A stretch of DNA of 64,000 bases. Origin: Myxococcota bacterium. Its GTDB lineage: Bacteria; Myxococcota; XYA12-FULL-58-9; JALHOP01. A model generated the notes under the pieces. That model worked only from the letters and a program-made list of their open reading frames with translations. It ran no database searches and was not told the origin of the DNA. Below are positions 8,730 through 58,409 of the stretch, in pieces (the stretch's first letter is position 1; each line of letters starts with the position of its first letter). The stretch lies in NCBI GenBank assembly GCA_041288095.1, contig JBGGMJ010000211.1, positions 32,001 through 96,000 on the forward strand. Reading direction: 5' to 3'. Made by a program: the position numbers and the translations under genes.

Positions 8730-8739
8730 AAGCGCTGCC

Positions 8740-9999: not shown

Positions 10000-10409
10000 C
10001 GCTCGACGACTTTCGCGAGCTGCACTAGGTCCCAGAGGTTCCCGTAGAGGTCCTTGAACACCGCCGCCGTACCGTACGGCGCGCTCGTCGGCTCGCGCAC
10101 GAAGGTGATGCCCTTGGCGCGGTAGGCCGCGTAGTCGCGCGCGATGTCGTCGGTGTGCAGGAAGAGAAAGACCCGGCCACCCGATTGGTTGCCGATGAAC
10201 TTCTCCTGTTCGGGTGTGGCCGCGCGCGCCAACAAAAGCTGCGCGCCGCTACCCGCGCCAGGCGGGGCGACGATGACCCAACGCTTCTTCTGCTCGGGAA
10301 CCTCGCTGTCTTCGACGAGGGTAAACCCGAGCTCTCCGACGAAGAAGGCGATGGCTTCGTCGTAATCACGGACGACGAGCGCGATGCACGCAAGTGATTG
10401 ATTGGTCAT
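9996..10409 (-). CDS. VOC / glyoxalase family protein
   Basis: ALVVRDYDEAIAFF, GNQSGGRVFLFL and FKDLYGNLWDL motifs. Confidence 0.92.
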   Translation of the reverse strand: MTNQSLACIALVVRDYDEAIAFFVGELGFTLVEDSEVPEQKKRWVIVAPPGAGSGAQLLLARAATPEQEKFIGNQSGGRVFLFLHTDDIARDYAAYRAKGITFVREPTSAPYGTAAVFKDLYGNLWDLVQLAKVVER

Positions 10410-10432
10410 GTGTCTCCTCGTACATCATCGTC

Positions 10433-11086: not shown

Positions 11087-11104
11087 CGTCTTGCTGTGCG
11101 CAGC

Positions 11105-12667
<1,563 letters not shown>

Positions 12668-12746
12668 GCCCCCGAAATCGCAGAGACGGCTCGGACTCGC
12701 AAGCGTTGAGCGAAGGCGTCGGCTTCGTGGTACAGAAAATGGGCAA

Positions 12747-14105
12747 ATGAATCGTTCCCGTCTGGGCGTTCTATCCCCTCTCCTCCTCGCTTTTGCCCTC
12801 GCCTGCGCCAGCGGTGGCGGTAGCGGCGTTGGCAGCAGCGCCAGCCGCGCCAACATGAGCGGCGACGAGCTGCGCTCGAAGGGTGACCTGAGTGGCGCCT
12901 ATTCGGCCTACTTCAAGGAAGCGCAGAAGAAGCCCGACAACGAGAAGGTCCACGTCAACCTCGGCGAGGTCGCGGTCGACCTGAAGAAGTACGACGAAGC
13001 CGTCGTTGCCCTCGAGAAGGCCAAGCAGCTTGGCGCCGGTAATCGCGCGACCGTGGCCCTGGCGGCCGCCAAGGCCGGGCAAGGCAAATACGACGAGGCG
13101 TCCGCCATGATGGACGAAGTCCTCAACGATGACGACGACGCCGAGAACTTCTACAAGGCCGGCAACATCAAGCTCGCCGCCCGCAAGCCCCGCGAAGCCC
13201 AGCCGCTGCTCGAGACCGCGCTCAAGAAGGACAAGAAGCTCGAGCACCAGGGCGCCGTCGGCCGTTGCCAATCCGCGCTCGGCCAGCACGAGGAAGCCAT
13301 CAAGACGCTCGATGGCGTGCTCAAGCAGTACAAGAAGCAAGGTGCCGTCGCCGCCGAGATGGAAGTCTCGCTCGCCAACTCGATGGTCGCCACCGGCCGC
13401 CTCGAGGAGGCGTTCCAAAAGTATCGCCACGCCGCCGGCATGGACCCGCGCAACGGCGAGGCTCAAGCACGCTACGCCGCTATGATGCGCGAGCGCGGCG
13501 ACATCGAGGGCGCCATCACGGTGCTCAAGGCCGCCGAGTCCAAACAGCCGCACTCGGGTATCGTCCAATACCAGCTCGGCCTCGCCTACAAGGACTTCAA
13601 GCTGCGCGAGCAGGCCGTCATCGCCCTGCAGAAGGCCATCCAGTACGACCCCAGCCTCGGCGAGGCATACACCCCGCTCCTCGCCATGATGGAAGAGGAT
13701 AAGGTCTCGACCGACAAGCTCTACGGTACCCTCGAGGCCGCGGCCAACGGGGCTCCGGGCGACTTCGAGCTGCAAATGCGCTTCGGGAAGCTCGCCGAAG
13801 GCAAGAAGCAGTACGCTAAAGCGCTCGCTGCCTACGACCGCGCGGTGAAGGCGACGCCCGGCAACGTCGAGGCGAACTTCGCCCTCGGGTCGATGCAAGT
13901 CGTGATGGGCAAGATCGAGGACGCGAAGCAATCGTACGACGCGCTGCGTACCATCGACGAGATGAAGGCGGCCGACTTGCTCACGCTGATCGAGCGCGTT
14001 CCAGCGCAGCCGCAACCTAAGCAGGCACAGGCCGACGCGCAGCCGAAGCCCAAGAACAAGGCGAAGCCGTCGAAGAAGGCCAAGGGCAAGAAGAAAGGCC
14101 GTTAG
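12747..14105 (+). CDS. TPR-repeat lipoprotein with Lys-rich C-terminus
   Basis: Lipobox ALAC, multiple TPR-like helical repeats, basic tail KPKNKAKPSKKAKGKKKGR. Confidence 0.85.
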   Translation: MNRSRLGVLSPLLLAFALACASGGGSGVGSSASRANMSGDELRSKGDLSGAYSAYFKEAQKKPDNEKVHVNLGEVAVDLKKYDEAVVALEKAKQLGAGNRATVALAAAKAGQGKYDEASAMMDEVLNDDDDAENFYKAGNIKLAARKPREAQPLLETALKKDKKLEHQGAVGRCQSALGQHEEAIKTLDGVLKQYKKQGAVAAEMEVSLANSMVATGRLEEAFQKYRHAAGMDPRNGEAQARYAAMMRERGDIEGAITVLKAAESKQPHSGIVQYQLGLAYKDFKLREQAVIALQKAIQYDPSLGEAYTPLLAMMEEDKVSTDKLYGTLEAAANGAPGDFELQMRFGKLAEGKKQYAKALAAYDRAVKATPGNVEANFALGSMQVVMGKIEDAKQSYDALRTIDEMKAADLLTLIERVPAQPQPKQAQADAQPKPKNKAKPSKKAKGKKKGR

Positions 14106-14107
14106 CG

Positions 14108-14800
14108 ATGAGTGTCCTCGCCGTCGACATTGGTGGCAGCAACCTCAAGTTCCGCACCCAGCACCACAAGAAGCATGTCTCGGTGCCGTCAGGGCCGAAG
14201 TTCACGCCCCGCCAGATGATCACCGCTATCGCGGAGCACACCGCCGGCTGGAAGTTCGACCGCGTCACCCTCGGCTACCCAGGCCCGGTGGCGAACGACC
14301 GTCCCCTGCTCGAGCCCCACAACCTTGGCGGTGGCTGGGCGCGCTTCGACTACGCGAAGGCCTTCAAACGCCCGGTGCGCATGATCAACGACGCCGCGAT
14401 GCAAGCCCTCGGCGCCTACCGCGGCGGCCGCATGTTGTTCCTCGGGCTCGGCACGGGCCTCGGCTCCGCTCTCGTCCTCGACGGCGTCGTGCAACCGATG
14501 GAGCTCGCCCACTTGAGCTGGAGAAAGGGCAAGACCTTCGAAGAGCACCTCGGCGAGGCAGCGCTGCTCACCGAAGGCAAGAAGGCCTGGCGCAAGACGG
14601 TCACGCGCGCCATCGAGGACCTCTCGGCGGCATTCCTGGTCGAATACATCGTCATCGGCGGCGGCAACGCCAAGCGCCTCAAGGACGTCCCCGACAACGT
14701 GTTCATCGGCAGCAACGCGGACGCCTTCGTCGGCGCCTTCCGCGTCTGGGACGACCATGTGGTCAGCCCGCGCCGGATTTCCCCACGGCTCGCCGGCTAA
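14108..14800 (+). CDS. ROK family sugar kinase (polyphosphate glucokinase-like)
   Basis: LAVDIGGS, GYPGPV, NDAAMQALG, GLGTGLGSA and GGGN motifs. Confidence 0.88.
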   Translation: MSVLAVDIGGSNLKFRTQHHKKHVSVPSGPKFTPRQMITAIAEHTAGWKFDRVTLGYPGPVANDRPLLEPHNLGGGWARFDYAKAFKRPVRMINDAAMQALGAYRGGRMLFLGLGTGLGSALVLDGVVQPMELAHLSWRKGKTFEEHLGEAALLTEGKKAWRKTVTRAIEDLSAAFLVEYIVIGGGNAKRLKDVPDNVFIGSNADAFVGAFRVWDDHVVSPRRISPRLAG

Positions 14801-44177: not shown

Positions 44178-45827
44178 ATGTGCTTGCGCACCGTGGCTCT
44201 GGCCACGACCATGGCCTTCCTCGCCACCGGCACCGCTGCCGAGGTTGCCGCCTCTCCCGAGCGCGTGGCGGTGGCGGGAAAGCGCGCTCCATCCAAGAAG
44301 GCCAAGGCCTCGAGCAAACGTCCACCACCTCCCGAGCCGGAGCTCGAGGCACCGGCGCTCGAAGAGCCACCGAAGCCCGCAAGCGCCGCAACTCCAGTCG
44401 CGTCGCAGGGGCCGCCGACGCTCTCCACCAAGTACCGAGCGGTGGCCATTCTGCCCTTCGATACATCGGACGTTGGTGAGTCGCTCATCCGCTCGATCGA
44501 ACAGGCCCTCATCAACGAGATCGAGGACAAAGGCGGGTTTCGCGCCGTGTCGCCGCGCGACGTCGTGAGCGAAGCGGCTTCCTACGACATGAGCCCGGGC
44601 AAGTGCGCGAACGAAGATGTTGCCTGCTGGGCTCAGGTGGCCCGTCACGCCCGCGCCCACCTCGCGATCGTCACGCGCGTCGCCGCCCTCGGCGGCGTGC
44701 TCAACTTGTCGCTCCGCCTGCTCGATGCGCAGACCGGCAGCGAGGTCGGCCGCGTCGCCGAGGCTCTGTCCGAGAAAACGGACGAGCGCGCCGCCCAGAT
44801 GCATCGGATGGCCGTGCAGTTGTTCACGCCGGCGGAGTACGTCGGCACGCTCATCGTCAAAAGCGACGAAGCCGGCGCCGACATCTACCTGAACGACAAG
44901 CTCGTCGGCACCACCCCGCTCAAGGCGCCGCTCAAGAGCTTGCCGGCGGGTCCCTACATCTTGCACGTCACCAAGGAAGGCTTCGCCGACGTCTACCAGT
45001 TCGTCGACGTCGCCTATAACCGCGTCTCGACCATCACGGTGAGCCTCGCCACCAACACCATTTCGGGCGCCATCGCTTTCGGCTCCGACACGGGCTTCGG
45101 CAGCGTGTACGTCATTTCGGACTTGCCCGAGGTCGAGGTGCGTATCGACGGCGAGCCCAAAGGCATGACGCCGCTCGAAGGCGCGATCTCGCAAGTCCCT
45201 GCCGGCAGCCGGCGCTTGTCTCTGCGTCGTGGCAACGCCGCGCCGCTGGTGCGCGAGCTCAAGGTCGAGAAAGGAAAGCGCACCGACGTCGGCGTCAGCG
45301 TGGGCCCGGACGGCACCCTCACGGCGGTGGTCATGGTGAGCTCCTTGGACAGCCCCTTGCCGGTCGACCCAGGCCTGTCGACGCCGGTCGCGGGCGTCAA
45401 GGCAGCCGGGCCCACCGCCGAAGCCAGCCATCCAGTCTTCACGAGCGGACTCGTGGTTGCCGGCGTGGGTGTGGTGGCGCTCGGCATCGGCGGCGTATTC
45501 GCGAGTCAAGTGCGCTCCGCCAACAACGCGGCCAAGGACTACGAGCGCACCATTCGTGAAAGTGACGACCCCGTGGAGCGCAACGAGGCGCGCGAGGATC
45601 TCGCCCAGCTCAACGAGGACGGTCCGGGCAAGGAGCGCAATCAGTGGATCGCGCTCGGCATCGGAGGGGGCTTGTTGCTCACCGGGGGCCTGCTCATGGC
45701 GGCGGATCATTGGCACTGGTTCGGCATCGGCGCGCAGAGCGCCGGCCGCGACCGGGACGATGGGCTCCGTATCGGGGTGATGCCGGGCCCTGGCGGCGGA
45801 ATGGTGAGCATCGCGACACCGTGGTAG
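44178..45827 (+). CDS. PEGA domain-containing exported/membrane protein
   Basis: Signal peptide, two PEGA-like repeats (GADIYLND..VGTTPL; VRIDGE..GMTPL), C-terminal Gly-rich hydrophobic segments. Confidence 0.85.
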   Translation: MCLRTVALATTMAFLATGTAAEVAASPERVAVAGKRAPSKKAKASSKRPPPPEPELEAPALEEPPKPASAATPVASQGPPTLSTKYRAVAILPFDTSDVGESLIRSIEQALINEIEDKGGFRAVSPRDVVSEAASYDMSPGKCANEDVACWAQVARHARAHLAIVTRVAALGGVLNLSLRLLDAQTGSEVGRVAEALSEKTDERAAQMHRMAVQLFTPAEYVGTLIVKSDEAGADIYLNDKLVGTTPLKAPLKSLPAGPYILHVTKEGFADVYQFVDVAYNRVSTITVSLATNTISGAIAFGSDTGFGSVYVISDLPEVEVRIDGEPKGMTPLEGAISQVPAGSRRLSLRRGNAAPLVRELKVEKGKRTDVGVSVGPDGTLTAVVMVSSLDSPLPVDPGLSTPVAGVKAAGPTAEASHPVFTSGLVVAGVGVVALGIGGVFASQVRSANNAAKDYERTIRESDDPVERNEAREDLAQLNEDGPGKERNQWIALGIGGGLLLTGGLLMAADHWHWFGIGAQSAGRDRDDGLRIGVMPGPGGGMVSIATPW

Positions 45828-48091
45828 CCGCCGGACGGGCCGGGCTTTTGCTGCTCGCCGGCCTCTTCGCTTGCAGCCCGAGCCTCGAGACGCCCAGCGG
45901 CGTGCGGATTCGCTGCGTCGACCATGATGACTGCCCGAGCGAGCGCTGCAGCACCACCGTCGGCGTCTGCATCGCGAAGGACGACGACGACTCGCCTTTG
46001 CGGATCGTCAGCGTCGAGGCGCTCGACTCACGGCACATCGTGGTGCTCTTCAATCGTGTCGTCGACCCCTCGTCAGCCGGTGACTTCACGGTCTACGCGT
46101 TGAGCCCGGGGATTTCACCGGAGGCCGCTGAGGTCGCCGACGATCACTTGAGCGTCACCGTGCAGACGACTCAGCAAAAGCTCCGCACGTACCTGGTCGA
46201 TGTCGTGGATGTGTTCGACCCCATCGGTCGTCCACTGGAGCGGACACAGAAGACCTTCACCGGCATCGGCGAACAAGTGAGCGCACTGGCGCCGACGCCG
46301 TTGGCGCCGCTCGATCACAGCCTCTTCGGTGAGCCGGAGGTCGCCTTGACCTGGAGCGCTCTCGACGACGCGGTGGACTACTCGATCGAGGTGGTGCGTC
46401 TCACACCCGCCGGCGAGATACCCATCGTCGGTTCGCCCTTCGTCACACGCGAAACCGAGCTGAACCTGACCGTCGAAGCAGACGCCACCTATTCATGGCG
46501 GGTCACCGCGGACACCAGCCGTGAGCCGCCGGTGACGTCGTCGTTTGCTGTCTTTGGCGACGCGATCCACGTCTACTGCGCGGCGACCGCCGACTGCTCG
46601 CTGGCCGACACCTGGGACGCCGGCACCAGCGTCAACCCGAGCCGCCGCATCGGGCGAGCCCTGGCGCTCGCGGCGTTTCTGTCGCGCGGCGAGGTTCGCA
46701 TCGCGGGTCGCGGCGCCGGCGGCGCCTATGACGAAGGCTTCATCGTGGCCGCGCCCATCACGCGCATCCGTGGCGGCTACGATCCGAGCTTCACGGTGCT
46801 CGACCCCGCGGCGACACCGACCATCATCCGTGGCGATCCAGCGGCCGTGCGGGTCATCACCACCATCCCCCTCGAGCTCTTCGATCTCGAGCTGCACGCA
46901 AGCGGCGGGGTTGCCTTGGCCTTGACCGGCGTCGCTCAGTTTGCGGCCACGCGCCTCAACTTGTTGGCGGCCAACGGTGGACGACCGCTCGACGCGCGCC
47001 GCTGCACGGACGGGATCGTCGTGACGTTCTCGAATCTCAGCACCGGAACGTTGGATGGTCCTGGCTTTCCGGCGCAGAGCCGGGTCACGGGCGCCTGTGA
47101 GGTCGACTTCGATCACGCCGCGATTGGTGGCGCGGGCATCGAGGTGGTCGCCGCCGGCGCAACCTTCCTCGATTCCACGATCGCCGTGACAACGGGGCGA
47201 CCCACGGGCGATCAGGATTTCCTTGGTCTCGAGATCGAGGCCGTGCTCGTCCAACGCGGCTCGGTCACGCTCCTGCGCAGCTTCGTGCGCGCCGGCACCG
47301 ATGACGGAGCCGAGCGCCGGGTTGCCTTGCGCGTCCTTGGCGGCGGTAACGCAAGGGTCGACTCCAGCACCCTCGTCGCGGCGCGGGTCGGCTATGGCGA
47401 ATGCGACCCCGTGAGCTGCCAGGGCTACGCGTATGCCATCGAGGGCCGTGACGTCGACGGCGTCGGGGAAGTCGATATCGTCGTGACCAACTCGGTCTTG
47501 GCCGCGAGCAGCACGCCGTTCACGAACGAGCGGACCGCGTCGGCGGTGTATTGGGTTGGCCCCGGAAGAATGTCGCTCATCCACGACATTCTCTACGCGA
47601 GCGAAGGAACTGCCCTGCAGGTAAACCCCGGGCAGGCGTCGGGCAACGACCTTCAGGTCCTCGATAGCGCTCTGGTGTGCAGCGGCACGAGCGTCGGCGG
47701 TGACAACGTCAGCGACGTTCCACCGCGCCTGCTGCGAGCCACCGCCATCGTCGGCTGCACGACGCCGTACATGCGCTTGGGGGCCAGCTACACGACCGCG
47801 TCCGCCATCATGAGCATCAGTGACCCCGCGCCGCATTCCTTTTCCAACCTGCATGTCTTGGCTGCCCCGGTGTCGGCGACGTTCCCCCAGTACGCTGGCG
47901 CGGACACCATACCCGGCACCGCGGACGACGACTGGTCGTGCGGTGCGGCCTGCTCGGGCCTCGGCGAGTCGAGCCAAAACCCAATCTGTGGGTCGAGCGG
48001 CGCGTCGACCTGCGCTGCTTCGGTCACGGTGGACAGCGCGGGCGTCAATCGGACCTCGCCGGTGAGCCTCGGCCCCCGGGAGGTCGATTGA
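45821..48091 (+). CDS. Cys-rich lipoprotein with Ig-like, FN3-like and beta-helix regions (paralog 1)
   Basis: LFAC lipobox, C..DDCP...C....C module, VVLFNR Ig-like, WRVTAD FN3-like, C-terminal DSAGVNR...LGPRE. Confidence 0.7.
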   Translation: MVAAGRAGLLLLAGLFACSPSLETPSGVRIRCVDHDDCPSERCSTTVGVCIAKDDDDSPLRIVSVEALDSRHIVVLFNRVVDPSSAGDFTVYALSPGISPEAAEVADDHLSVTVQTTQQKLRTYLVDVVDVFDPIGRPLERTQKTFTGIGEQVSALAPTPLAPLDHSLFGEPEVALTWSALDDAVDYSIEVVRLTPAGEIPIVGSPFVTRETELNLTVEADATYSWRVTADTSREPPVTSSFAVFGDAIHVYCAATADCSLADTWDAGTSVNPSRRIGRALALAAFLSRGEVRIAGRGAGGAYDEGFIVAAPITRIRGGYDPSFTVLDPAATPTIIRGDPAAVRVITTIPLELFDLELHASGGVALALTGVAQFAATRLNLLAANGGRPLDARRCTDGIVVTFSNLSTGTLDGPGFPAQSRVTGACEVDFDHAAIGGAGIEVVAAGATFLDSTIAVTTGRPTGDQDFLGLEIEAVLVQRGSVTLLRSFVRAGTDDGAERRVALRVLGGGNARVDSSTLVAARVGYGECDPVSCQGYAYAIEGRDVDGVGEVDIVVTNSVLAASSTPFTNERTASAVYWVGPGRMSLIHDILYASEGTALQVNPGQASGNDLQVLDSALVCSGTSVGGDNVSDVPPRLLRATAIVGCTTPYMRLGASYTTASAIMSISDPAPHSFSNLHVLAAPVSATFPQYAGADTIPGTADDDWSCGAACSGLGESSQNPICGSSGASTCAASVTVDSAGVNRTSPVSLGPREVD

Positions 48092-50325
48092 TGCGCCGCA
48101 TCGCCCTTCTGCTCGCGCTCTCGTCGGCCTGCAGCGTGTCCCTCGTCACTCCAGACGACGCCGTTATCGTGTGCGACGAGGACGCCGACTGCCCACTCGG
48201 CCGCTGCGATGTGGCGCTCCAGCGCTGCGTCGGAGCGGGCAGTGGCACGCCACTGCGCTTCACGTCCGCTATCGCGACCTCGTCGGTGCGGGTCGATGCC
48301 GTGTTCAATCAGCCGCTGGCGCCGCGAAGTGTCGTCGGCGCGGCGCAGGTGACGATCGTTCCAGCTCTCGCGGTCACAGGGCTCGCGCTCGACGAAACCA
48401 ATCAGCGCCTCTCGGTCACTACCGAGCAGCAAGCCTTCGATGTCGTCTACACACTGACGGTCACCGGTTTTTTGGCCAGCGCCGGCGACCCGCTCGAGGA
48501 AACAGCGCGCAGCCAATCGTTCACGTCCTTTCTCGGGCTCGCTGACCGGAATCCGCCCGCCATCATCCGGCCCGCGGACGGCAGTCGGGTGCGCGGCGGT
48601 GACGTGGACTTCGCTTGGCAAGCAATCGGTGGCGCCACCAGCTACACGCTGGAAGTCTTCCGGCGCGGTGAGGCCGCGCCACTCGCCCTCGTCGAGGTTC
48701 CGGCCACCACGACGACCATCAGCATCGCGCTGCCGCTCGAAGGCACGTACGACTGGCGCGTACGCGCCGACACCACCACCGCGGGCGTCTACAACAACGC
48801 CGCCTTCGATGCTCTCGTCGACGCCGTCTACGTCTCCTGTTCCGAGCCAGAGTGTCCGCCGCGTCTCGGCAATGGCAGCAGGCGGGCGCCGGTCCAACGC
48901 ATCAACGAGGGTCTGGTGCTCGCGCGTCAGCTAGGCATCGGCTCGGTGCGCGTCGCGGCCCGCGCCGACGGTGGCACCTACGACGAGATCTTGGTGCTCG
49001 CGGACACACCAGTGACGATCGATGGTGGATTCGACGCCGCCTTTACCCCCGGCGCAGGCCGCGCCGAAATCGCAGCCGTCGGCACCGTGATTGTCGCCCG
49101 ACCGGCCTCGGGACCGTTGCGTATCGCCAACGTTCTGCTCTCGGCTCTGTCGGCGCCGAACCTCGAGGTCGTCAGCGTCGAGGGCGCCACCGACATCACC
49201 TTCGACGACGTCGTCATCCTGGCCGAGCCGACCATCGATACGAGCGTCGGTATCAACTGTGACGGCCGCCCGGGTATCGCCGACGTGCACCTCGCCGACG
49301 TGACCATGCTCCTCAGCACCAGCGCATCCGTGGGGGTCGAGCCCAGCGAGTCGATGGTGGGAATTCGCGGGCGCGATGCGCGTCTCGACGTCCGCGATAG
49401 CTTCCTCTCCGTGGGCTTGGAGCCGGCTGGCGGCGGAGGCCCGAACCAGATTCGCGGCATCGAGCTGCTCGGCAACGGTACGTTCGCCGCCACGCGTCTC
49501 ACGGTGGGCGTCGGCTACGCGGTCGCCGTGTCGACGGCATACTTCGATGACCGCAGCGCGCGGCCGAGCGGCGCCCCGGCGTACGATTTGATCGAGGCCT
49601 CGCGTTTTTTCGTGCCGGTCAGCAACAGCGCCATCATTGCCGTGTACATCACCCATTTGCGACGCATTGTTGTCCGCAATAGCGTCGTGGTCGCGGGCGG
49701 CGCCCCCGCGGTCGACGCGGTGCGTATCCTCGGCGGCCTCGAGGACGGCTCGCCCGGCGACGGGCCCAATTTCATCCACGACCTCATTCAGGTCACGAAC
49801 GACCGGCCCTCGAACGCCATCGCGAGCAACGTCAAGGGGTTCATGGTCGCCAATTCGATCATCACGACCGATGCGTGCACCAACGTGGCCTGCGGTTCGA
49901 CGACCAATCGCTGCCTATTCGTCAACGGCGACGTGGGCCCCGCCGCGCTCGTCGGCACGGCCCTCGCGTGCGAGGCGCCCTACGCGGGCTTCGGTCTTGG
50001 CTCCCCCGACTTCAGCCAGCCCTCTCCCAGCTGCGCCGACGGCCAGGGACGCGTCATTCGCTGCACCGGCACCACCCTCGTCACGCCACCGCTCGGCGCC
50101 TATTTCACCGATGGCGACGGCGCCGACGCCAGCATCGGCACAGCCGCGGACAATGACTACCACCTGCTCGTCGGCGCACCGGCAAGCCTGCGCACCGGAG
50201 GCGTCAACTTGGCCGGCAACGTTTGCGGGTACGCCGATCAGTCATTGCCCTGCAACGCCGGCACCACCGACGCCGATGGCGTCACGCGCTCCAATCCGTT
50301 TTCGATGGGCCCCTACGAGTACTGA
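48091..50325 (+). CDS. Cys-rich lipoprotein with Ig-like, FN3-like and beta-helix regions (paralog 2)
   Basis: SSAC lipobox, same domain order as the upstream gene, WRVRAD, C-terminal DADGVTR...MGPYEY; TGATG coupling. Confidence 0.7.
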   Translation: MRRIALLLALSSACSVSLVTPDDAVIVCDEDADCPLGRCDVALQRCVGAGSGTPLRFTSAIATSSVRVDAVFNQPLAPRSVVGAAQVTIVPALAVTGLALDETNQRLSVTTEQQAFDVVYTLTVTGFLASAGDPLEETARSQSFTSFLGLADRNPPAIIRPADGSRVRGGDVDFAWQAIGGATSYTLEVFRRGEAAPLALVEVPATTTTISIALPLEGTYDWRVRADTTTAGVYNNAAFDALVDAVYVSCSEPECPPRLGNGSRRAPVQRINEGLVLARQLGIGSVRVAARADGGTYDEILVLADTPVTIDGGFDAAFTPGAGRAEIAAVGTVIVARPASGPLRIANVLLSALSAPNLEVVSVEGATDITFDDVVILAEPTIDTSVGINCDGRPGIADVHLADVTMLLSTSASVGVEPSESMVGIRGRDARLDVRDSFLSVGLEPAGGGGPNQIRGIELLGNGTFAATRLTVGVGYAVAVSTAYFDDRSARPSGAPAYDLIEASRFFVPVSNSAIIAVYITHLRRIVVRNSVVVAGGAPAVDAVRILGGLEDGSPGDGPNFIHDLIQVTNDRPSNAIASNVKGFMVANSIITTDACTNVACGSTTNRCLFVNGDVGPAALVGTALACEAPYAGFGLGSPDFSQPSPSCADGQGRVIRCTGTTLVTPPLGAYFTDGDGADASIGTAADNDYHLLVGAPASLRTGGVNLAGNVCGYADQSLPCNAGTTDADGVTRSNPFSMGPYEY

Positions 50326-50328: not shown

Positions 50329-51442
50329 CTACTCGAGCTCTTTCTGATCGGTCGCTGTCTTACCCAGCAGATACGACTCGATGAAGCCATCGAGGTCGCC
50401 GTCGAGGACAGCGTCGGTGTTGCCCGCTTCGTGTCCGGTGCGATGATCCTTCACGAGACGATACGGCTGCAGAACGTACGAACGGATCTGCGAGCCCCAC
50501 TCGATCTTCTTGCGGTCACCGGCGAGCTTCTCGCGCTCTTCATCGCGCTTGCGCAGCTCGAGCTCGAAGAGCTTGGCGCGCAGCATCTTCATCGCCTTGG
50601 CGCGGTTCTTGTGCTGGCTACGCTCCGCCTGACAGGCGACGACGATGCCGGTGGGCATGTGCGTCAGGCGGATGGCCGACTCCGTCTTGTTGACGTGCTG
50701 ACCGCCCGCTCCGCTCGAGCGGTAGGTATCGACACGCAGATCTTCGTCGCGGATCTCCACCTGCACGTCGTCGTCGATCTCGGGCGCTGTCGCGACCGAG
50801 GCAAACGAGGTGTGACGACGCTTGGCCGAGTCGTAGGGGCTGATGCGCACCAAGCGGTGCACTCCCTGCTCCGCCTTCAGATACCCATAGGCGTACGGGC
50901 CGGTGATCTCGAGCGAGGCGCTCTTGATGCCGGCTTCTTCGCCGTGCTGGATGTCGAGCACCTCGACCTTGAAGTCGTGCTGCTCGGCCCAGCGGCTGAG
51001 CATGCGCATGAGCATCTGCGCCCAATCCTGGCTCTCGGTGCCGCCGGCTCCGGCGTTGATCGAGAGGAGCGCGTTGTTCTTGTCGTATTCGCCACCGAGC
51101 ATGCGCTGCAGCTCGAACTGCTCGATGGTCTTCTTCGCCGTGCCGATGTTGTTGTCGACCTCGGCGGCAATCTCGGCGTCCTGGTCGGCGAGCTCGAGCA
51201 AGCCGTCGGCGTCCGAGATCAGCTTTCCCACGTAGCGGAACTGCTGCACGACGCGCTCGAGCCGCGTGCGTTCTTGCTGGAGCTTGGCGGCGGCCTGGGC
51301 GTCTTGCCAGAGGGCGGGGTCACCCGAGCGTTCTTCTATCTCGACGAGCTGTCTCTCCAAGCCGGCGATGTCAAAGATGCCTCCGCAGCAAGGAGACTCG
51401 GTCTTGGAGCTGCGTGAGGAGTGGCTTGCGGTCGTCGCTCAT
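50329..51442 (-). CDS. prfB: Peptide chain release factor 2 (programmed +1 frameshift)
   Basis: GAGGTESQDW, HRLVRISPY, GAGGQHVN and WGSQIRSY motifs; 23-codon first frame from ATG 51442 ends in CTT-TGA-C. Confidence 0.97.
51370..51384 (-). promoter_or_regulatory. prfB frameshift site (internal SD plus CTT TGA C)
   Basis: Minus strand reads GGAGG-CAT-CTT-TGA-C; +1 shift gives GAC ATC GCC GGC TTG, in frame with the main ORF. Confidence 0.95.
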
Positions 51443-51476: not shown

Positions 51477-54089
51477 TCAACCGCTCTGCGCGACTCGGTC
51501 GGCGATAGTCTTGGCGAACTGGTGCACGTTCGCCATCGTGCTCATCGAGAGGACCTCATTGGCGTAGAAAATCCCGCCCTCGCCTTGGAGGTTTCGGGCG
51601 CGCTCGAAGAACTTCTCCATGCGCATGGCGTCGCCGTCGACATGAGGGAAGAACTTCCAGCGTCGGGCTTCGACGAGCTCGACCGAGGTAGCTCCGAGCT
51701 TCTCCATGTCGCCACGGATCTTGGCTACGACATCGGCGTCGCTGAGCTGCTCCGGCGCAAAGAGGTGGAAGATGCAGAGGTCGTCGTCGGGGTAGCGCTT
51801 GATCCACGCCATCGGGTGACCGGCGCGGTCCTCGCGCATGTTTTCGCGCAGGTACCCGACTTCGGCGCGCCCGTCGGCAACGCCCCGCACGCGGCAGGCG
51901 AAGGTGCTGTACGGCATGTGCTTGACCAGGCCGAAGAGCTGCTGCTGTTCGGGTGGCGCGTCGATGAATTCGAGCGACTGCTTGAGGTCGCAAGCGACGA
52001 CGACGCGATCGAAGTGTTGCTTGCCGGCGGCGGTGTGCACGATGGCGGTGCCGTCATCGCGCGACTCCAGGCGCCGCACCGGGGTCGACAGCTTGACGTC
52101 GAGGTCCTTGGCGACGCCTTCCCAGATGGGAGTCGTGCCGTGCTTCCACATGAGGAGCTCGCCGCTGCCGGCGCCGACGATGGTCTGCGGCCCGAGCATG
52201 CGCATGCCGAACACCGACGGTGTGTCGCCGGGGAAACCGTAGCCGTAACCAGTCAGATAGGTATCGAGCGCCGGCGCGAAGGCTTCGAAACCCTGGCGTG
52301 AGGCTACGATGCCGAGCGGCTCGGCGAGGTCTTCGTGGGGCACTTCGAGGCCGTCGCCGGCCTGATTACGAGCCTTGAAGTTCGTGACCATGTAGCGCAG
52401 CGCGCCGGCGTAGAACGCGGCCGTCTCCGAGAACGTGCGCGGTGGTCGGGCTTTGCCGGTCGAGAGGTCGTACTGCACCTGCTGCGGAAAGCTCGTGGTG
52501 TGCACGCCGTGCTCTAGGCCCAGCGCCACGATCCCGTCGTACATGCGTGGCACGCCCATGGTTGCGCCCATGTCGTGCTCGCGTCCGTTGAAGCGGACGG
52601 TGAAGCTCTTGCCTCCGACGCGGTCGTCGGCCTCGAGAACCGTGACGTTGGCGTAGCCCTGGCTGCGCAGATCGTGCGCAACCGAGAGGCCCGAAGGACC
52701 GGCGCCGACCACGCAGATCGCTGCGTTCTTCGCGAGCGGCTCGTCGCGTGGGGGTCGTGGCTTCGCGGCGGCATCGACCGCCTGGGTGTGCGCCTCGACC
52801 TCGTCGACACAGGCGCGGATCGCCGCCACCTGCTCGGGCGTCGCACGCAGGGCGTCGAGCTTGGCGCGGCTCGGCATCTCGCGCACCGGCTTGACGCTCG
52901 CGTCCGGTCCGCCTTTGCGGAAAACGAACTGGTCGACGTTCATGTGTCCGCTGCGGAAGCCACCGGCGATGCCCAGCAGATACATGTCCTGCATGCGCTT
53001 GAATCGGTCGTTGTAGCGCTCGCCGCGCAGCTCGGGCCAGGCGGCTTCGAAGTTCGCATGCCAGGCGAGCAACGTCTTGTCGTAGCTGTCGGTGATGCGC
53101 TGTACGTCCTCGGCCGCCCCGAACCAGTCCGCCGCCGCGGTGTCGATCTGCTCGCGCGAGGGACACAGACCGTCGCGGAAGATGTACTCGCCCATCCAGG
53201 CGTTGCAGCGCACCTTGCTCTTGGGCTCGAGGATGGCTTGCAGAGCGAAGCTGCCGCCGGGCTTCAGGCACGCCTGGGCGCATTCGAAGTAGCCGCGGAA
53301 GTTCTTGGGACCGACCGCTTCGATCATCTCGATGGAGACCACGTGATCGAAGTGGTCCTTGGGGAAGCGCTTCGCGAGGTCGCGATAGTCGCTGTAGATG
53401 AACGACACGCCGCCGATGTCCTTCGAGAGCGCGCGGGCGAGCTTGAGCTGCTCGTTCGAGATGGTGATGCCGACGACCTCGGCGCCGTAGTGCTTGGCGG
53501 CGTAGCGGGCAAAGCCGCCGAAGCCGCAGCCGATGTCGAGGACGCGGTCACCGGGCTTCAACCCCATCTTACGACACAAGAGATCGTGCTTGGCGTTCTG
53601 CGCGTCCTCGAGGGTGTAGCCGTCGGCATAGACGCCGCTGGTGTACGCCAGGGTCGGCCCGAGCATGCGCGCGTAGAGGGGGTTGCCAACGTCGTAGTGT
53701 TCCTTGGCGACGTTGGTCGAGCGCGTGATGGTCTGGCGGTTGAAGAAGATGGCGAGGGCGTCGCGGTAGAGGTGGCGTGCCGCGGCCTCGGCGAGGAGCA
53801 ACGGCGTCCGCGTGATCACGTCGGCCGTGAACAGGCGCTCCTTGGCCTTGATGGCGGTGAGCCGCGCGGTCAGCTCGTCGAGCGACTTACAGTCCCAGAG
53901 GCCGTCCATGTATGTGACGCCGAGCTGCATGTCCGGGTCACGGAGGACCCGGGCGTAGAAGCTCGGGTCGTGGACGGTGACGTCCTGAGGTGCGTTGCCG
54001 CCGATGCGGACGCCGGCAGCGGCCAGGAGCTCGGTGACGGTGCGTTGTGCGGGCGAAATAGCGCCCTTACCGACGTGTCCGTTGCTCAT
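51477..54089 (-). CDS. Fusion: cyclopropane-fatty-acyl synthase-type methyltransferase plus FAD-dependent (PUFA isomerase-like) domain
   Basis: N-half HYDVGN, VLDIGCGFGG, VSIEMIEAVG, YDKTLLAW; C-half VVGAGPSG, LEADDRVGGK, DMGATMGVP; one uninterrupted ORF. Confidence 0.85.
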   Translation of the reverse strand: MSNGHVGKGAISPAQRTVTELLAAAGVRIGGNAPQDVTVHDPSFYARVLRDPDMQLGVTYMDGLWDCKSLDELTARLTAIKAKERLFTADVITRTPLLLAEAAARHLYRDALAIFFNRQTITRSTNVAKEHYDVGNPLYARMLGPTLAYTSGVYADGYTLEDAQNAKHDLLCRKMGLKPGDRVLDIGCGFGGFARYAAKHYGAEVVGITISNEQLKLARALSKDIGGVSFIYSDYRDLAKRFPKDHFDHVVSIEMIEAVGPKNFRGYFECAQACLKPGGSFALQAILEPKSKVRCNAWMGEYIFRDGLCPSREQIDTAAADWFGAAEDVQRITDSYDKTLLAWHANFEAAWPELRGERYNDRFKRMQDMYLLGIAGGFRSGHMNVDQFVFRKGGPDASVKPVREMPSRAKLDALRATPEQVAAIRACVDEVEAHTQAVDAAAKPRPPRDEPLAKNAAICVVGAGPSGLSVAHDLRSQGYANVTVLEADDRVGGKSFTVRFNGREHDMGATMGVPRMYDGIVALGLEHGVHTTSFPQQVQYDLSTGKARPPRTFSETAAFYAGALRYMVTNFKARNQAGDGLEVPHEDLAEPLGIVASRQGFEAFAPALDTYLTGYGYGFPGDTPSVFGMRMLGPQTIVGAGSGELLMWKHGTTPIWEGVAKDLDVKLSTPVRRLESRDDGTAIVHTAAGKQHFDRVVVACDLKQSLEFIDAPPEQQQLFGLVKHMPYSTFACRVRGVADGRAEVGYLRENMREDRAGHPMAWIKRYPDDDLCIFHLFAPEQLSDADVVAKIRGDMEKLGATSVELVEARRWKFFPHVDGDAMRMEKFFERARNLQGEGGIFYANEVLSMSTMANVHQFAKTIADRVAQSG

Positions 54090-54098
54090 GGTCCTAGT

Positions 54099-54126
54099 TT
54101 TTCGGCAACCCACCCGCCGGCGGTGC
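54099..54126 (-). promoter_or_regulatory. Putative sigma-28-like promoter (GCACC-N15-GCCGAAAA)
   Basis: Shared motif ending 9 nt before ATG 54089. Confidence 0.6.
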
Positions 54127-54137
54127 GTGGACCCGCC

Positions 54138-54165
54138 GCACCGCCGCGTACCTTTTGGCCGATAA
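54138..54165 (+). promoter_or_regulatory. Putative sigma-28-like promoter (GCACC-N15-GCCGATAA)
   Basis: Perfect sigma-28 -10 consensus; back-to-back with the minus-strand copy. Confidence 0.65.
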
Positions 54166-55080
54166 ATGGTCGTCTTGGTCGCTATCGAGCGAAATTCCCC
54201 CGTTCAGACCGCCGGATCGCCGCCGCCAGGGCCCGAAAGCGCCATTCTGGCACCGACCAAGGCCGCGCCCGCCGCGCTCCCTGATCTGCCCAAGCGCCCG
54301 GAATCGTGGGGCCCGTTCCTCTACAAGGAGGACCGTCTGCCCACCGCCGTGGTCGCGGCGGGGGTCGCCCTATCGCTCGCGCCCTTCCTGGTGCCGATGA
54401 GCGCCGGGACCATCGCCTGTCTCCTGCCGGTCGCTCTGGCGGCGCGGGTCATGGCCCCGGTGCATCAGCACCACCACGCCCACCTCAAGGTCTTCACCAA
54501 CCGCTGGCTCAACAAGCTCTACGACACCGTGCTCATGCTCGGCGGCGGTAACGTCACGACCGGATGGGAGATGCAGCACTGCCGCGGCCATCACACCCAG
54601 TATCTCGACCACGAGAAGGACGTCGCCGGGTCCATGCGCTTCACGAAGAGTGGTCCGTTCCGGCGGATCATCTACACGGTGCTGGGTGATGCGAGCTCGC
54701 TGCGCGATGCCTGGAAGATCGCCGGCCAGAGCCGCGACCCCGGCAAAGTCCGCCGCCGGCTCGCCGGCGAGGTCGCCCTGCAGGTCGCGGTGAACGGTGC
54801 GCTGCTCGCCATCAATCCGCCCCTGGCGCTTGCGACCATCATCCTGCCCAACGTGCTCCTGCGCTGGATGGTCTTCTGGAAGTCATTCGACCAGCACGAC
54901 GCCGCGCCGGGCAACGATGTTTACGACGGCTCGGTGAACGTCTCGGGGCGCATCCAGGAGCTCTTCCTGAACGTCGGCCACCACACGGCGCATCACAAGA
55001 AGCCGACACTCCACTGGTCACGGCTGCCGGAGCTGACCGACCAGATCAAAGACAAGATCCCCACGGTGCTCATGCGCTAG
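54166..55080 (+). CDS. Membrane fatty acid desaturase family protein
   Basis: Three His boxes HQHHHAH, HCRGHH and HHTAHH plus hydrophobic segments; real start may be TTG 54175. Confidence 0.88.
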   Translation: MVVLVAIERNSPVQTAGSPPPGPESAILAPTKAAPAALPDLPKRPESWGPFLYKEDRLPTAVVAAGVALSLAPFLVPMSAGTIACLLPVALAARVMAPVHQHHHAHLKVFTNRWLNKLYDTVLMLGGGNVTTGWEMQHCRGHHTQYLDHEKDVAGSMRFTKSGPFRRIIYTVLGDASSLRDAWKIAGQSRDPGKVRRRLAGEVALQVAVNGALLAINPPLALATIILPNVLLRWMVFWKSFDQHDAAPGNDVYDGSVNVSGRIQELFLNVGHHTAHHKKPTLHWSRLPELTDQIKDKIPTVLMR

Positions 55081-56557
55081 ACATCACGCGCCTCACCGTC
55101 GCGCGATCGACGAGGCGGATGAACCCGACCCCCACGGCAATCAAGGCGAGCCACACCACGACGTCGCCAGCGCGCACATAGACGGTCAACGAGTCGCGCA
55201 AGCCGACATCACCGGTGAGCACGGTTTGCTCACCCAGGGACGTCTGGCCACGCACCCGGCCGCGCGGATCGATGATGGTCGAGATACCGGTGTTGGTCGC
55301 GCGGGCCACCCAGCGATCGGTTTCGACGGCACGCAACACGTACGCGTCGCGGTGCTGGTACGGCCCGCTCGAGGCGCCATACCAGGCGTCGTTGGTGATA
55401 TTCACGAGCAGACGCGACCCGTGCAGCGCGAGATTGCGACTGATGGCGGGGAAGATTCCGTCATAGCACACAAGCGCGCCCGCCTGCATGGTGCCGATGG
55501 GATCGGTGCGGCGCCCGGCGCTCACCTCGCCCAGCTCGGGAACGATCGCGCTGACGGCCAAGAGACGCGCCAGCGGCACGTACTCTCCGAACGGCACCAA
55601 GGCGATCTTGTCGTGACGGCCGAGCACGGTGCCGTCCGGGCCGACCGCGAAAGCGGAGTTCGTCACGACGCTGCCGCCGTCCTCGAAGCGCAGGGTCGCC
55701 GCGCCCACGATCATGGGCACCGTGCCGGTCGCGAACGGGAACAAGGCGATGCGGGGATCGGGCCGGCCGGGCCACGCTGCCTCCGGCCAGACGACGAGCT
55801 GCGCGCCCTCGCCTTGCGCGCGCTTACTCAGCTCCTCGTAGGTCGCACGAATGGTCACGGCATTGTCGAGGTCGCGGTTCTTGATGTCCTGGGCGATGTT
55901 GCCCTGCAAGAGCCCCACGCGCAGCGTCTGCCCATCGGTGCCGGGATAGAACATGCGTATGCCGCCGGCGAGATGAATGAGCGCGACGAGGAGCCCTACC
56001 ACCGCGCTCGACCAGGGTCGGCCGCGCATGTCGCCGATAGCCGCGCCACAGAGCGCCACCACCGCGGTGACGGCGTGGCTACCGCCCACGGCGGCAAGCT
56101 GCACCAGCGGCAGATCGCGCGCCATCGCCCAGCTCCACTCGCCCCAGGGAAACGCGGCGATGACCCAGCCGCGCAACCAATCCACCGTGAGCACCGCCGC
56201 CGCGAACGCGAGATACGGGTGCACCACGCGCACCGCTAACGCGGACAGTCGGGGAATGAGCGCCCAGTACGCGGCGCAATAGGCCACGAGCAACACCAAG
56301 GCAGGCAGCGCTTGCCAGGGCGGCATGCCGCCGTAGCGGATCATGGCGATCGACAACCACCAGAGAAGCACCGAGAAGAAGCCGAGCCCCGCGGCGAAAG
56401 GCTCTCGTCCGCGATAGAGGTAAGCGACGCCGGCCAGCAGGAAGACCTCGCGAGGCAGCCACTCGAAGAGCGGCCCATCGCCGAACCCGGGCACGGCGAA
56501 TGGGAAGGCCAGGGCCGAGAGGGCTCCGACCATCAAACCGAAGAGAATGCGGGTCAC
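55070..56557 (-). CDS. lnt: Apolipoprotein N-acyltransferase
   Basis: FPW, QGNI, VWPE, K..LVPFGEYVP, CYDGIF, NITNDAWYG and RATNTGIS motifs. Confidence 0.96.
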   Translation of the reverse strand: MTRILFGLMVGALSALAFPFAVPGFGDGPLFEWLPREVFLLAGVAYLYRGREPFAAGLGFFSVLLWWLSIAMIRYGGMPPWQALPALVLLVAYCAAYWALIPRLSALAVRVVHPYLAFAAAVLTVDWLRGWVIAAFPWGEWSWAMARDLPLVQLAAVGGSHAVTAVVALCGAAIGDMRGRPWSSAVVGLLVALIHLAGGIRMFYPGTDGQTLRVGLLQGNIAQDIKNRDLDNAVTIRATYEELSKRAQGEGAQLVVWPEAAWPGRPDPRIALFPFATGTVPMIVGAATLRFEDGGSVVTNSAFAVGPDGTVLGRHDKIALVPFGEYVPLARLLAVSAIVPELGEVSAGRRTDPIGTMQAGALVCYDGIFPAISRNLALHGSRLLVNITNDAWYGASSGPYQHRDAYVLRAVETDRWVARATNTGISTIIDPRGRVRGQTSLGEQTVLTGDVGLRDSLTVYVRAGDVVVWLALIAVGVGFIRLVDRATVRRVMSSA

Positions 56558-56636
56558 TCCGGGGTGGGTACGCCATTGGCGTGCTCGCTTCCAGCCGTGT
56601 GTTACCTTCTTGTGTCCGGAGAGGGGCCGCTCCGGG

Positions 56637-58409
56637 ATGAAAGGTACCTCTTCGATGCTACTCGCTTGCTTGCGTGGGCGTGCTTGTCGCGGTGGATTCT
56701 TGATAGCGGCGTTGACGGTGGCGGGATGTGACGGTGACGACGGGCGCAATGGCCGCGATGGCGTTGACGGCGTCGACGGCACCAACGGCACGCCTGGCCA
56801 GGACGGCAGCGCCGGTTCGAGCTGCACGACTTCACAGAACGCGGCCGGCGATACCGTCATCAGTTGCACCGACGGCACCAGCGTCACCATCGACGCCAGC
56901 GGCAACGTCGTACCGCCGCCGCCCGTGGGTCTCGATCACCAGGCACAACAGCTGGTGCTGTCGGTCGACGTTCAGGCCGCTTACAACGGCACGACCATGT
57001 TCTGGCGCACGCGCTTCAAAGGTAACGAGGGCAAGTACCAAGACTATTATCACTTCACGGGCGGTCGCTGGACGCTCGAAGGCCGCTCGCGGCGCGACAC
57101 GGCGGCCAGCCTGCGCAACCCCACCGATCCGCGCCAAGGGGACATCGACCCCGCGGTCGCCAATACGCATGAGTCGCGGATCGCGCTCATGTTCCATGAC
57201 CCGGCGAACCCCAAGGTCCAGCACTTCGAGAAGTACGGCTGCTTCATGACCTGCCATGACCGTCTGCGGCAGATGCCGCGCTGGACCAGCTCCGATGGCG
57301 ACCGCACCAAATACATTCGCTTCGATGACTCGGCGAATTGGTGGGACAAGCCGGTGGAAGCGAGCATCACGGTCGCGGGCACGCCGGTGCTCGACCTCTG
57401 GCATTGGCGGGCGCACCGCGGCCATTTGATTGGCGCCGCCGACGACCAGACGGTGACCGCTGTCCGCGAGGCCGACAATGCGACGTCCGCGACGGCGGGC
57501 GCCGGCCGCAAGAGCGATGCGGGCACGGCCGTCGTAAGCACGCAGAACCGCGTCGATGGCGGCGCCGGCACGTGCGTGGGGAGCGGCACTCAGCTCTGCA
57601 CCGAGTTCGTCCTCGATCCGCTGACGACCGGCGGCAAGTTCGTCTTCAAGTGGGAAGACTTCTTCAGAACGCCCTCGTTCTACATGACCACCGAAGCGGA
57701 TGCGCAGACCGGGCCGCTGGCGCCGAATCCGACGCGTCTCGCCTGGGCTCAGGCGGTTGCCGGCGGCTACACGCCGAGTGAAGGCGACACCGTTCCCCGC
57801 CGCATCCTGCGCGCCGGCTCGGGCAGCGCCGCCGACATCAAGGACACCGGCACCACCTTCACGCGCCTGTCGCAATACGACGACTATGGCTTGTGGGACG
57901 TGCGCATGAGCCGCGCCTTGACCACCGCCAACGCCGACGACGTCGACTTCACCGACGGCAACACGTACCACGTCGGCATCTCGTCGCATCTCTGGGAGTA
58001 CGGCGGTCGCGACCACTATGCATCGCTCCCCTACTCGGTCGAGCTCACGGGCGCGGACCCCAGCGGCTCTGTCGCCGACATCAAAGCGGTACTCTTCGTG
58101 GGTACGACGCCCGATTGGGCGACCGTGCCGACGTTCCGTGCTTACCTCGTGCAGCCGGGCATCATGTCCTGGGACTTCCTCGTCGGCAATCTCACCGCGG
58201 CGACGTACAACGACCCGCTCACGGGCGACCCCGTCGACAACACACACGAAGGGGCCGACGAAATGCGGGCAGCGACGCACACGTGCGCCGATTGCCACAC
58301 GGTGACCGAGGCGCAAGACCGCGCCACGCCGAGCACGGGCGGTTCGCTGGAGAAGACCATGCCGCAGCGCAAAGGCATCTTCTCCCTGACGCCGTTGCCG
58401 CCACTGTAA
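56637..58409 (+). CDS. Lipoprotein cytochrome c with ethylbenzene-dehydrogenase-gamma/DOMON-like domain and collagen-like stalk
   Basis: VAGC lipobox, G-X-Y repeats, AAYNG..MFW, ESRIALMF, CFMTCH, LDLWHWRAHR and CADCH; start may be 56655. Confidence 0.72.
   Translation: MKGTSSMLLACLRGRACRGGFLIAALTVAGCDGDDGRNGRDGVDGVDGTNGTPGQDGSAGSSCTTSQNAAGDTVISCTDGTSVTIDASGNVVPPPPVGLDHQAQQLVLSVDVQAAYNGTTMFWRTRFKGNEGKYQDYYHFTGGRWTLEGRSRRDTAASLRNPTDPRQGDIDPAVANTHESRIALMFHDPANPKVQHFEKYGCFMTCHDRLRQMPRWTSSDGDRTKYIRFDDSANWWDKPVEASITVAGTPVLDLWHWRAHRGHLIGAADDQTVTAVREADNATSATAGAGRKSDAGTAVVSTQNRVDGGAGTCVGSGTQLCTEFVLDPLTTGGKFVFKWEDFFRTPSFYMTTEADAQTGPLAPNPTRLAWAQAVAGGYTPSEGDTVPRRILRAGSGSAADIKDTGTTFTRLSQYDDYGLWDVRMSRALTTANADDVDFTDGNTYHVGISSHLWEYGGRDHYASLPYSVELTGADPSGSVADIKAVLFVGTTPDWATVPTFRAYLVQPGIMSWDFLVGNLTAATYNDPLTGDPVDNTHEGADEMRAATHTCADCHTVTEAQDRATPSTGGSLEKTMPQRKGIFSLTPLPPL

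Follow-up and report, generated by a model that had tools for sequence, protein, structure and literature searches.

A 64,000-nucleotide stretch of DNA from a Myxococcota bacterium (NCBI GenBank assembly GCA_041288095.1, contig JBGGMJ010000211.1, positions 32,001 to 96,000 of the forward strand; the whole stretch is called the window here, and positions are counted from its first letter) carries on its minus strand a gene in which a Cfa-type methyltransferase dependent on S-adenosylmethionine (SAM) is joined to a flavoprotein of the polyunsaturated fatty acid isomerase (PAI) family. By sequence comparison, the gene product consists of a full two-domain Cfa-type methyltransferase and a full-length PAI-family flavoprotein, with homology that is strong and not due to chance, and it points to an undescribed membrane fatty acid modification in a soil bacterium. 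We put at roughly 0.5 the probability that the protein is a bifunctional enzyme acting on the unsaturated acyl chains of membrane phospholipids, one that would add one carbon and then shift or add a double bond on the same chain.

Domains and integrity of the fusion gene

The open reading frame of the fusion runs along the minus strand over positions 51477..54113 (878 residues when read from a GTG codon, with the stop codon at 51477-51479). The ATG at 54089 is the likely start (51477-54089, 870 residues), because a database twin with 100% identity (P0003) is itself 870 residues long and an AGGA lies 4-7 nucleotides upstream of this codon. Within the 870-residue protein, the Cfa-type methyltransferase forms residues 1-397 (52899..54089, minus strand) and the PAI-family flavin adenine dinucleotide (FAD) enzyme, which has the amine-oxidase fold, forms residues 452-870 (51480..52736, minus strand). 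The two enzymes are joined by a conserved linker of ~55 residues (52737..52898, minus strand), in which the motif PVRELPSRxxLDAxRAT is followed by a long helix.

In the N-terminal half, the Pfam family CMAS (PF02353) matched residues 130-396 (E 5.8e-66), and the translation contains the SAM-binding motif VLDIGCGFGG. A PDB sequence search aligned this half with the cyclopropane fatty acid synthase (CFAS) of E. coli (6bqc; E 1.7e-81 to 9.6e-83, residues 24-402 on 19-375). Since the alignment begins at chain residue 19, the N-terminal domain, for which a role in lipid binding is described in E. coli CFAS (PMC11387697), is present in the fusion. The half is ~40-43% identical to standalone CFAS and scores 383.1 bits against the NCBIfam equivalog model for E. 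coli Cfa (NF008686, PRK11705), under the cut-off of 400.

In the C-terminal half, Pfam recognized Amino_oxidase (residues 474-823, E 1.3e-23) and NAD_binding_8 (E 1.5e-12). The match of FAD_binding_3 was limited to residues 465-495 of the fusion, and other FAD families touched the Rossmann stretch only. The FAD Rossmann motif reads GAGPSG, and the glycines of GxGxxG are invariant in our alignment A1. The original prediction, made from the letters alone, had placed a CFA-type and an FAD domain in one 870-residue frame and had pointed out a likeness to the N-terminus of PAI. The Pfam and PDB results bear out this architecture, and the likeness holds over the whole C-terminal domain: the PAI of P. 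acnes (2b9w) aligned end to end at E 5e-45 to 1.1e-45 (residues 460-873 on 3-421), the alignment at 1.1e-45 spanning residues 9-422 of 427. It had also been considered that this domain might group with other amine oxidases; the best of these reached E 1.2e-10 to 8.4e-12, and did so over the Rossmann part, so that 1.1e-45 for PAI stands against 8.4e-12 at best for the others. NCBIfam holds no model for the PAI-like domain, nor for the desaturase family described below. Arg88, which we take to be the carboxylate-binding arginine of PAI, is not an arginine in the C-terminal domain by the 2b9w alignment, and we gave this no weight.

The same architecture was then found elsewhere. When 5.8 billion proteins were searched with a word index, 32 matches were obtained. 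Of these, 30 (P0003-P0032) are fusions over their full length (852-1048 residues), with 48-100% identity to the window fusion in alignment A2 and 49-100% by BLASTP; their sources are several, an Elusimicrobiota bin among them. In a genome search with one genome per species, fusions made up three of the 80 loci kept (L001, 89%; L002, 69%; L003, 55% identity), and two of ten metagenome loci (L099 and L100) were also fusions. Across the 30 fusions of alignment A2, the linker has a near-constant length and keeps its motif, and invariant positions are spread along the whole PAI-like domain in all fusions. An AlphaFold2 model built on this alignment reached a mean pLDDT of 89.9 over the whole chain, with a pTM of 0.88; the linker was modelled at a pLDDT of 92-93 (residues 401-440) and 82 (441-450), with helices at 408-414 and 418-442. 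When the fusion model was searched with Foldseek, 6bqc ranked first (TMt 0.94) and PAI (2b9w) second (TMt 0.85, E 1.9e-28), while the next flavoprotein after PAI followed at E 4.8e-19 and TMt 0.72.

The window comes from a metagenome bin of 212 contigs that is 90% complete (G000), and the original prediction had named an assembly or frameshift artefact joining two adjacent genes as a possible objection. Logan contigs from two soil runs match the fusion stretch free of insertions or deletions, and one independent contig of 1413 nucleotides bridges the domain junction; these two best runs may come from the source sample. Pieces of the fusion stretch with 99-100% identity also occur in runs of two further studies. 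The sequencing runs listed for the stretch include no RNA data set. An artefact was rejected, its likelihood being negligible in view of 30 distinct fusions across many assemblies, the conserved linker and the junction-spanning contig. Thus, as far as sequence data go, the fusion is genuine and an artefact is excluded; it is probably vertically inherited.

The divergent desaturase and the split operon

Head to head with the fusion, 76-85 base pairs away, lies a gene for a small membrane protein of the di-iron desaturase family (P0002; 54175..55080, plus strand). This confirms the divergent desaturase with three His boxes of the original prediction: the protein scores 77.3 bits against FA_desaturase (PF00487; cut-off 29.7, E 2e-21), its His boxes read HQHHH at 100, HCRGHH at 138 and HHTAHH at 272, and two hydrophobic blocks are present. 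The TTG at 54175 is probably the real start, because the alternative ATG at 54166 (54166..55080, plus strand, 304 residues) is not kept in the 89%-identical locus L001 and the database twin, P0035, has 301 residues. The intergenic region common to both genes (54090..54174) hardly differs in L001, whereas the codons on either side of it vary. It contains a perfect inverted repeat of 10 nucleotides (54118-54127 and 54137-54146, with a spacer of 9 nucleotides), the inner part of which is kept in L001; the repeat (54118-54146) could be a shared operator. A consensus scan of the region found no sigma-70-like site.

Fifteen relatives of P0002 were found, the window's own twin P0035 included, and the protein atlas clusters for P0002 are labelled only as generic fatty acid desaturase. 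Members with known context adjoin PAI-associated CFAS genes. In the desaturase tree, the P0002-like family is split with a support of 100 from desA, the other desaturase of the operon described below, and the window copy forms a subclade with L001, P0036 and P0037. P0036 and a 70%-identical fusion (P0005) have the same source, and both list a longest contig of 7833 base pairs, which hints at a possible third adjacent pair of desaturase and fusion.

The pairing itself proved narrower than first implied. The desaturase adjoins the fusion in the window and in L001, whereas a P0002-like gene is missing up to 6 kb from the L002 and L003 fusions and in the 5.5 kb upstream of the L099 and L100 fusions, two loci with little downstream sequence. 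The L002 genome yielded no P0002-like gene anywhere at E<=1e-10, and a whole-genome search of L003 found only a desaturase of 26% identity. The desaturase as an obligate partner of the fusion was rejected on these grounds. The genome of the window itself contains six FA_desaturase genes.

The link to this desaturase family, as opposed to the strict pairing, holds in a second arrangement, in which the same parts are separate genes of one operon. Standalone PAI-like genes of this subclade, ~38-41% identical to the C-terminal domain of the fusion, were found at ten loci, i.e., in two Kofleriaceae bins (L009 and L055) and on eight metagenome contigs (L094-L098 and L101-L103). The operon has a fixed order: a desA desaturase, the PAI-like gene, a desaturase fused to cytochrome b5, a P0002-like desaturase and CFAS. 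The desA gene lies upstream of the PAI-like gene at nine of ten loci (the sequence of L097 ends there), and the cytochrome b5-fused desaturase lies downstream of it at eight of ten (the sequences of L101 and L102 end there). At all five loci that reach far enough, the P0002-like desaturase is directly upstream of CFAS, and at three of these five (L009, L055 and L097) a second P0002-like desaturase follows CFAS. The neighbourhood of the split operon therefore links the same three protein families, independent of the evidence from the fusions.

A maximum-likelihood tree was computed with every third database fusion, 18 randomly drawn ordinary CFAS loci and L057. The fused and split CFAS sequences form one clade of 21 rows, 16 fused and five split (UFBoot 98, SH-aLRT 92), apart from 19 ordinary CFAS rows and four CFAS-like genes that lie beside DUF1365; a quick tree agrees. 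One further standalone PAI-like gene (L141:8926-10197, plus strand) is 54% identical to the C-terminal domain, closer than the operon copies. It has no CFAS or desaturase within 8 kb, and its neighbours are of a polysaccharide type (pyruvyl transferase, FrhB-like, methyltransferase), so close PAI-like relatives are not always found in such lipid clusters.

To survey the PAI-like family at large, the C-terminal domain was searched exhaustively and profile-free against 1.84 billion cluster representatives, giving 187 relatives at E<=1e-30 and 709 at E<=1e-10. A single cluster among them (P0031) is a fusion with CFAS. No CMAS domain was found in 16 long relatives that were scanned; these either consist of amine oxidases in tandem or contain AMP-binding, carrier-protein, thioesterase, BD-FAE or catalase domains, partners that fit a family handling acyl chains. 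In a sample of the phylum, 18 of 401 genomes have a PAI-like match (E<=1e-20), and four of the matches, the window included, lie in open frames of ~900 residues. PAI-like flavin domains also occur inside large carrier-protein enzymes (L143:3566-10447, minus strand; P0096, P0108, P0109, P0121, P0173, P0192 and P0190). One type, of ~2300 residues and present in two large genomes of the same phylum, has the order AMP-binding, PAI-like, PP-binding, thioesterase, and in another a catalase-like domain stands ahead of PAI-like, PP-binding and BD-FAE domains. Judged from these domain arrangements, the enzymes suggest PAI-type chemistry on carrier-bound acyl chains.

The methylase site and the order of reactions

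Positions C139, E239, H266, I268 and Y317 of the bicarbonate site of E. coli CFAS were mapped onto the fusion via the 6bqc alignment. Glu239, His266 and Tyr317 are named as bicarbonate ligands (PMC11387697), and Cys139 and Ile268 are named as residues of the site (PMC3132707). The site of the window fusion is Ser, Glu, Gln, Ile and Tyr, i.e., the equivalents of Glu239 and Tyr317 are kept, His266 is replaced by Gln and Cys139 by Ser.

The survey of this site covered high-scoring segment pairs spanning at least 300 query residues in sequences other than the window's own copies. Gln stands at the His266 position in all 35 fusion rows (30 distinct sequences), 33 of which read SEQIY, with CEQLY in P0009 and CEQIY in P0011, and in all five split CFAS sequences (CEQFY). 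Among the other standalone CFAS loci, 71 of 73 read CEHIY, the exceptions being L057 (Gln) and L012 (Ser). Gln is again present in five of five CFAS-like genes of the same phylum that have DUF1365 as a neighbour; these come from five of the six loci fetched and are UfaM-like by synteny only. On the residues seen, the His-to-Gln change can be said to mark those CFAS enzymes whose partner is a flavoprotein; by the tree, the change arose separately in the fused and split clade and in the DUF1365-linked clade. The genome of the window has a second CFAS-like gene, which is split over two contig ends (G000:C126:58268-59260 and C182:6-173; L145 and L146), stands alone amid unrelated genes and has the site S-E-Q-T-Y, with Gln at the position of His266. 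No His-type Cfa was found among the three CMAS matches above 90 bits in this 90%-complete genome.

We propose that the Cfa-type half, whose homology is clear, would use SAM to place a C1 unit on a cis double bond in the acyl chain of a phospholipid. The methylated product would stay on the enzyme and pass to the PAI-type flavin domain, which may abstract a hydride beside the new branch. If the hydride is returned elsewhere the double bond would shift, and if it is passed on a second, conjugated double bond would form. The expected product would be a chain with a mid-chain C1 branch (or a cyclopropane) and a shifted or conjugated double bond, not a plain cyclopropane acid. This proposal is drawn by analogy with the successive action of UfaM and UfaD, in which methylation would create a weak C-H bond for attack by the flavoenzyme. 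The methylase is placed first because UfaD prefers the methyl-branched product of UfaM, possibly via this weaker C-H bond (PMC7380195). In addition, no source of a diene is present near many fusions, so the product of the methylase would be the natural substrate of the flavin domain. The proposal further draws on the finding that physical joining of BfaA to BfaB raised conversion to ~90% (PMC7791843), and the two families stay together, whether fused or split. The di-iron desaturase may be an accessory partner added in the lineage of the window, where it would supply or further modify a double bond on the same chain; since many fusions have no such neighbour, it is not required by the fusion.

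Several points weigh against this proposal. The order of the two steps is one that we infer. PAI acts on free 1,4-dienes without net redox change, and the Kofleriaceae operon is rigid and has four desaturase-family genes; both fit at least equally well with a sequence that starts from a diene and has the isomerase act ahead of the methylase. The changes of His266 to Gln and of Cys139 to Ser are shared with the cotton enzymes GhCPS1 and GhCPS2, FAD-oxidase-CPS fusions that do make cyclopropane acids; the change to Gln is reported for the GhCPS enzymes, and the residue list gives I729 for GhCPS2 at the H266 position (PMC3132707). The claim that the His266-to-Gln change proves a product other than cyclopropane was therefore dropped, and the changed site is not proof of non-cyclopropane chemistry. 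Removing the oxidase domain from cotton GhCPS cuts activity by ~70% and does not abolish it; with ~30% of activity independent of the FAD domain, catalysis need not be the task of a flavin domain that is fused to CFAS (PMC3132707).

The same cotton data support an unlikely alternative, in which the protein makes ordinary cyclopropane fatty acids and its flavin domain is auxiliary. The closeness of the N-terminal half to the Cfa equivalog model and to standalone CFAS fits with this, as do the S-E-Q-I-Y site of the cyclopropane-making cotton enzymes and the activity that remains when their oxidase domain is removed (PMC3132707). Yet the PAI-like domain is strongly conserved over its full length in all fusions, and a PAI-like gene persists separately in the split operon, which is hard to explain for a mere stabilizer; the loss of His from the site is likewise confined to two of the 73 other standalone CFAS loci.

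A rather improbable alternative, which follows the sequence of steps of the original prediction, reverses the order of events, such that a 1,4-diene made by desaturases would be conjugated by the PAI-like domain and one of its double bonds then methylated or cyclopropanated. PAI, the only characterized relative, requires a methylene-interrupted diene and converts linoleate to 10E,12Z conjugated linoleic acid (PMC13365329, citing Liavonchanka 2006), and desaturases are plentiful, with four desaturase-family genes in the split operon, one of them fused to cytochrome b5, and six in the genome of the window. A dedicated desaturase is nevertheless missing near the L002, L003, L099 and L100 fusions, and the L002 genome as a whole yielded none of the P0002 type at E<=1e-10. 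The domain order of methylase and flavoenzyme matches tmpB-tmpA instead, which is a weak argument.

That match leads to the doubtful possibility that the fusion is an analogue of BfaB-BfaA or TmpB-TmpA, in which a methylene branch would be reduced by the flavin domain to a saturated methyl group, as in 10-methyl-type acids. Two unrelated flavoproteins already pair with Cfa-like methylases in this way, and tmpBA has the same gene order (PMC7791843). The C-terminal domain, however, is of neither the BfaA nor the TmpA type, its Pfam family being Amino_oxidase and the families of the others being those described in PMC7791843. For NAD(P)H, it has no evident second nucleotide-binding domain, and it fits end to end with the single-cofactor PAI; moreover, the partner desaturases would be left without a role.

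As possible products, the original prediction had listed a conjugated, branched, cyclopropene or furan-type lipid. The known furan pathway consists of UfaM, the flavoprotein UfaD and the DUF1365 protein UfaO (PMC7380195). Membership of this pathway was rejected: UfaO (DUF1365, PF07103) had no match in the 90%-complete genome of the window or in the three further genomes from its genus, and the flavin domain does not resemble UfaD, the amine-oxidase genes beside DUF1365 (at three of six fetched loci) matching the C-terminal domain at E 5e-10 to 9e-4 only. In the sample of the phylum, DUF1365 was present in 26 of 301 genomes. We hold it improbable, too, that a PAI-type flavoenzyme, a Gln-type CFAS and P0002-like di-iron proteins form a second, DUF1365-independent route to furan-type or to oxygenated, methylated conjugated fatty acids. 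In such a route, the flavin domain would make a 10,12-type conjugated diene, which has the geometry of the PAI product and is of the type used as substrate by UfaO; the methylase would add the ring methyl group, and the desaturase-like di-iron enzyme would insert oxygen. On this view, the two genes in the window would be the minimal version of the route, and the complete version, beginning with a monoene, would be that of the Kofleriaceae operon.

Genomic surroundings and comparison with known systems

The fusion in the window has housekeeping genes as neighbours: one flank has bamA, lolD, a lolC/E-type permease, lysS and prfB, and the opposite flank has lnt. The lnt gene for apolipoprotein N-acyltransferase (55070..56905, minus strand; Pfam CN_hydrolase and LNT_N) is directly upstream of the fusion in L002, a locus from the window's own GTDB genus, and prfB for peptide chain release factor 2 (50329..51360, minus strand; Pfam PCRF and RF-1), which lies downstream of the fusion on the same strand, also adjoins the fusion there. 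The order in L002 is YbeY-Lnt-fusion-PrfB, with no desaturase between Lnt and the fusion; the desaturase was therefore inserted between lnt and the fusion in the lineage of the window. The L099 fusion adjoins genes of heme synthesis. A position amid housekeeping genes in L002, L099 and the window fits a membrane function, and most fusions presumably work alone amid such genes, on ordinary unsaturated membrane lipids.

Other features of these surroundings were observed in passing. The prfB frame (50329-51360, with its upstream region to 51476) starts with TTG at position 2 of the PCRF profile; the first codons of release factor 2 may sit in another frame, as in the usual programmed +1 frameshift. 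Beyond prfB, the window has two putative open reading frames of ~800 residues with no Pfam family (45644-50325, plus strand), and L002 likewise has, on the far side of prfB, two putative frames of comparable size and no family (9819-14308, minus strand); the DNA is GC-rich. Near the L003 fusion are genes for a protein with SpvB, TcdB_toxin_midN and FG-GAP domains (2545-5220, plus strand), a glutathione S-transferase (8573-9241, plus strand), a second, short CMAS-family protein encoded on the other strand (11083-12015, minus strand) and a LysR regulator (12322-13233, plus strand).

Tuberculostearic-type, furan and plant cyclopropane fatty acids are known to be made by pairs of a Cfa-like methylase and a flavoprotein, and the family described here adds to such pairs a third, independent type of flavoprotein, from the PAI family, in which one member has a known function. 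The PAI family in turn gains a natural context, i.e., a rigid operon with desaturases and a methylase, together with a compact fusion that should be easy to express. With the product assigned, an enzyme family that so far has no name (187 clusters at E<=1e-30) would gain a function, and a new lipid might come to light in the membranes of soil Myxococcota-like bacteria. The assignment could also show the role of a flavin domain joined to a cyclopropane synthase, a question still open in plants, and could give a one-gene tool for branched or conjugated fatty acids. No description of the fusion or the operon was found in the full-text literature, a coverage that leaves out most subscription journals.

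Compared with the systems already described, the C-terminal domain is closest to PAI (2b9w), with which it shares an alignment from end to end, the FAD Rossmann motif and the amine-oxidase fold, and which is its best flavoprotein structural match at ~26% identity by structure alignment. PAI stands alone and acts on free linoleate, whereas the domain in the window is fused behind a phospholipid-directed methyltransferase. With E. coli CFAS (6bqc), the N-terminal half has in common the lipid-binding N-terminal domain, the SAM catalytic domain and the equivalents of Glu239 and Tyr317; it differs in a score under the equivalog cut-off, in Gln at His266 and Ser at Cys139, and in a C-terminal extension of 470 residues.

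The furan pathway of UfaM, UfaD and UfaO likewise combines a Cfa-like methylase with a flavoenzyme of the amine-oxidase superfamily on phospholipid chains, and Gln at the His266 position is seen beside DUF1365. In the window, by contrast, a PAI-like flavin domain is fused to a methylase that belongs to another clade, the DUF1365-adjacent CFAS-like genes, which are UfaM-like by synteny only, forming a separate long branch (support 100). The plant cyclopropane synthases and AtUFAMD1, compared here by their published description, have flavin and CFAS domains in one polypeptide, and the site of GhCPS1 is S-E-Q-I-Y (PMC3132707, PMC10940516). Their flavin domain comes first and is reported to be UfaD-like (38.5% to UfaD), whereas in the window fusion the CFAS comes first and is followed by a PAI-like domain (PMC3132707, PMC10940516); the opposite order in plants, as stated in the original prediction, thus agrees with PMC3132707. 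BfaAB and TmpBA, which make 10-methyl fatty acids, also pair a Cfa-like methylase with a flavoprotein, and tmpB-tmpA has the same order. They differ in flavoprotein families unrelated to PAI, in being two natural genes and in having no desaturase partner (PMC7791843). The combination of a methylase with a flavoprotein on acyl chains is thus already known, and what is new is the PAI-type flavoprotein family, the order of the fusion and the attached desaturase family.

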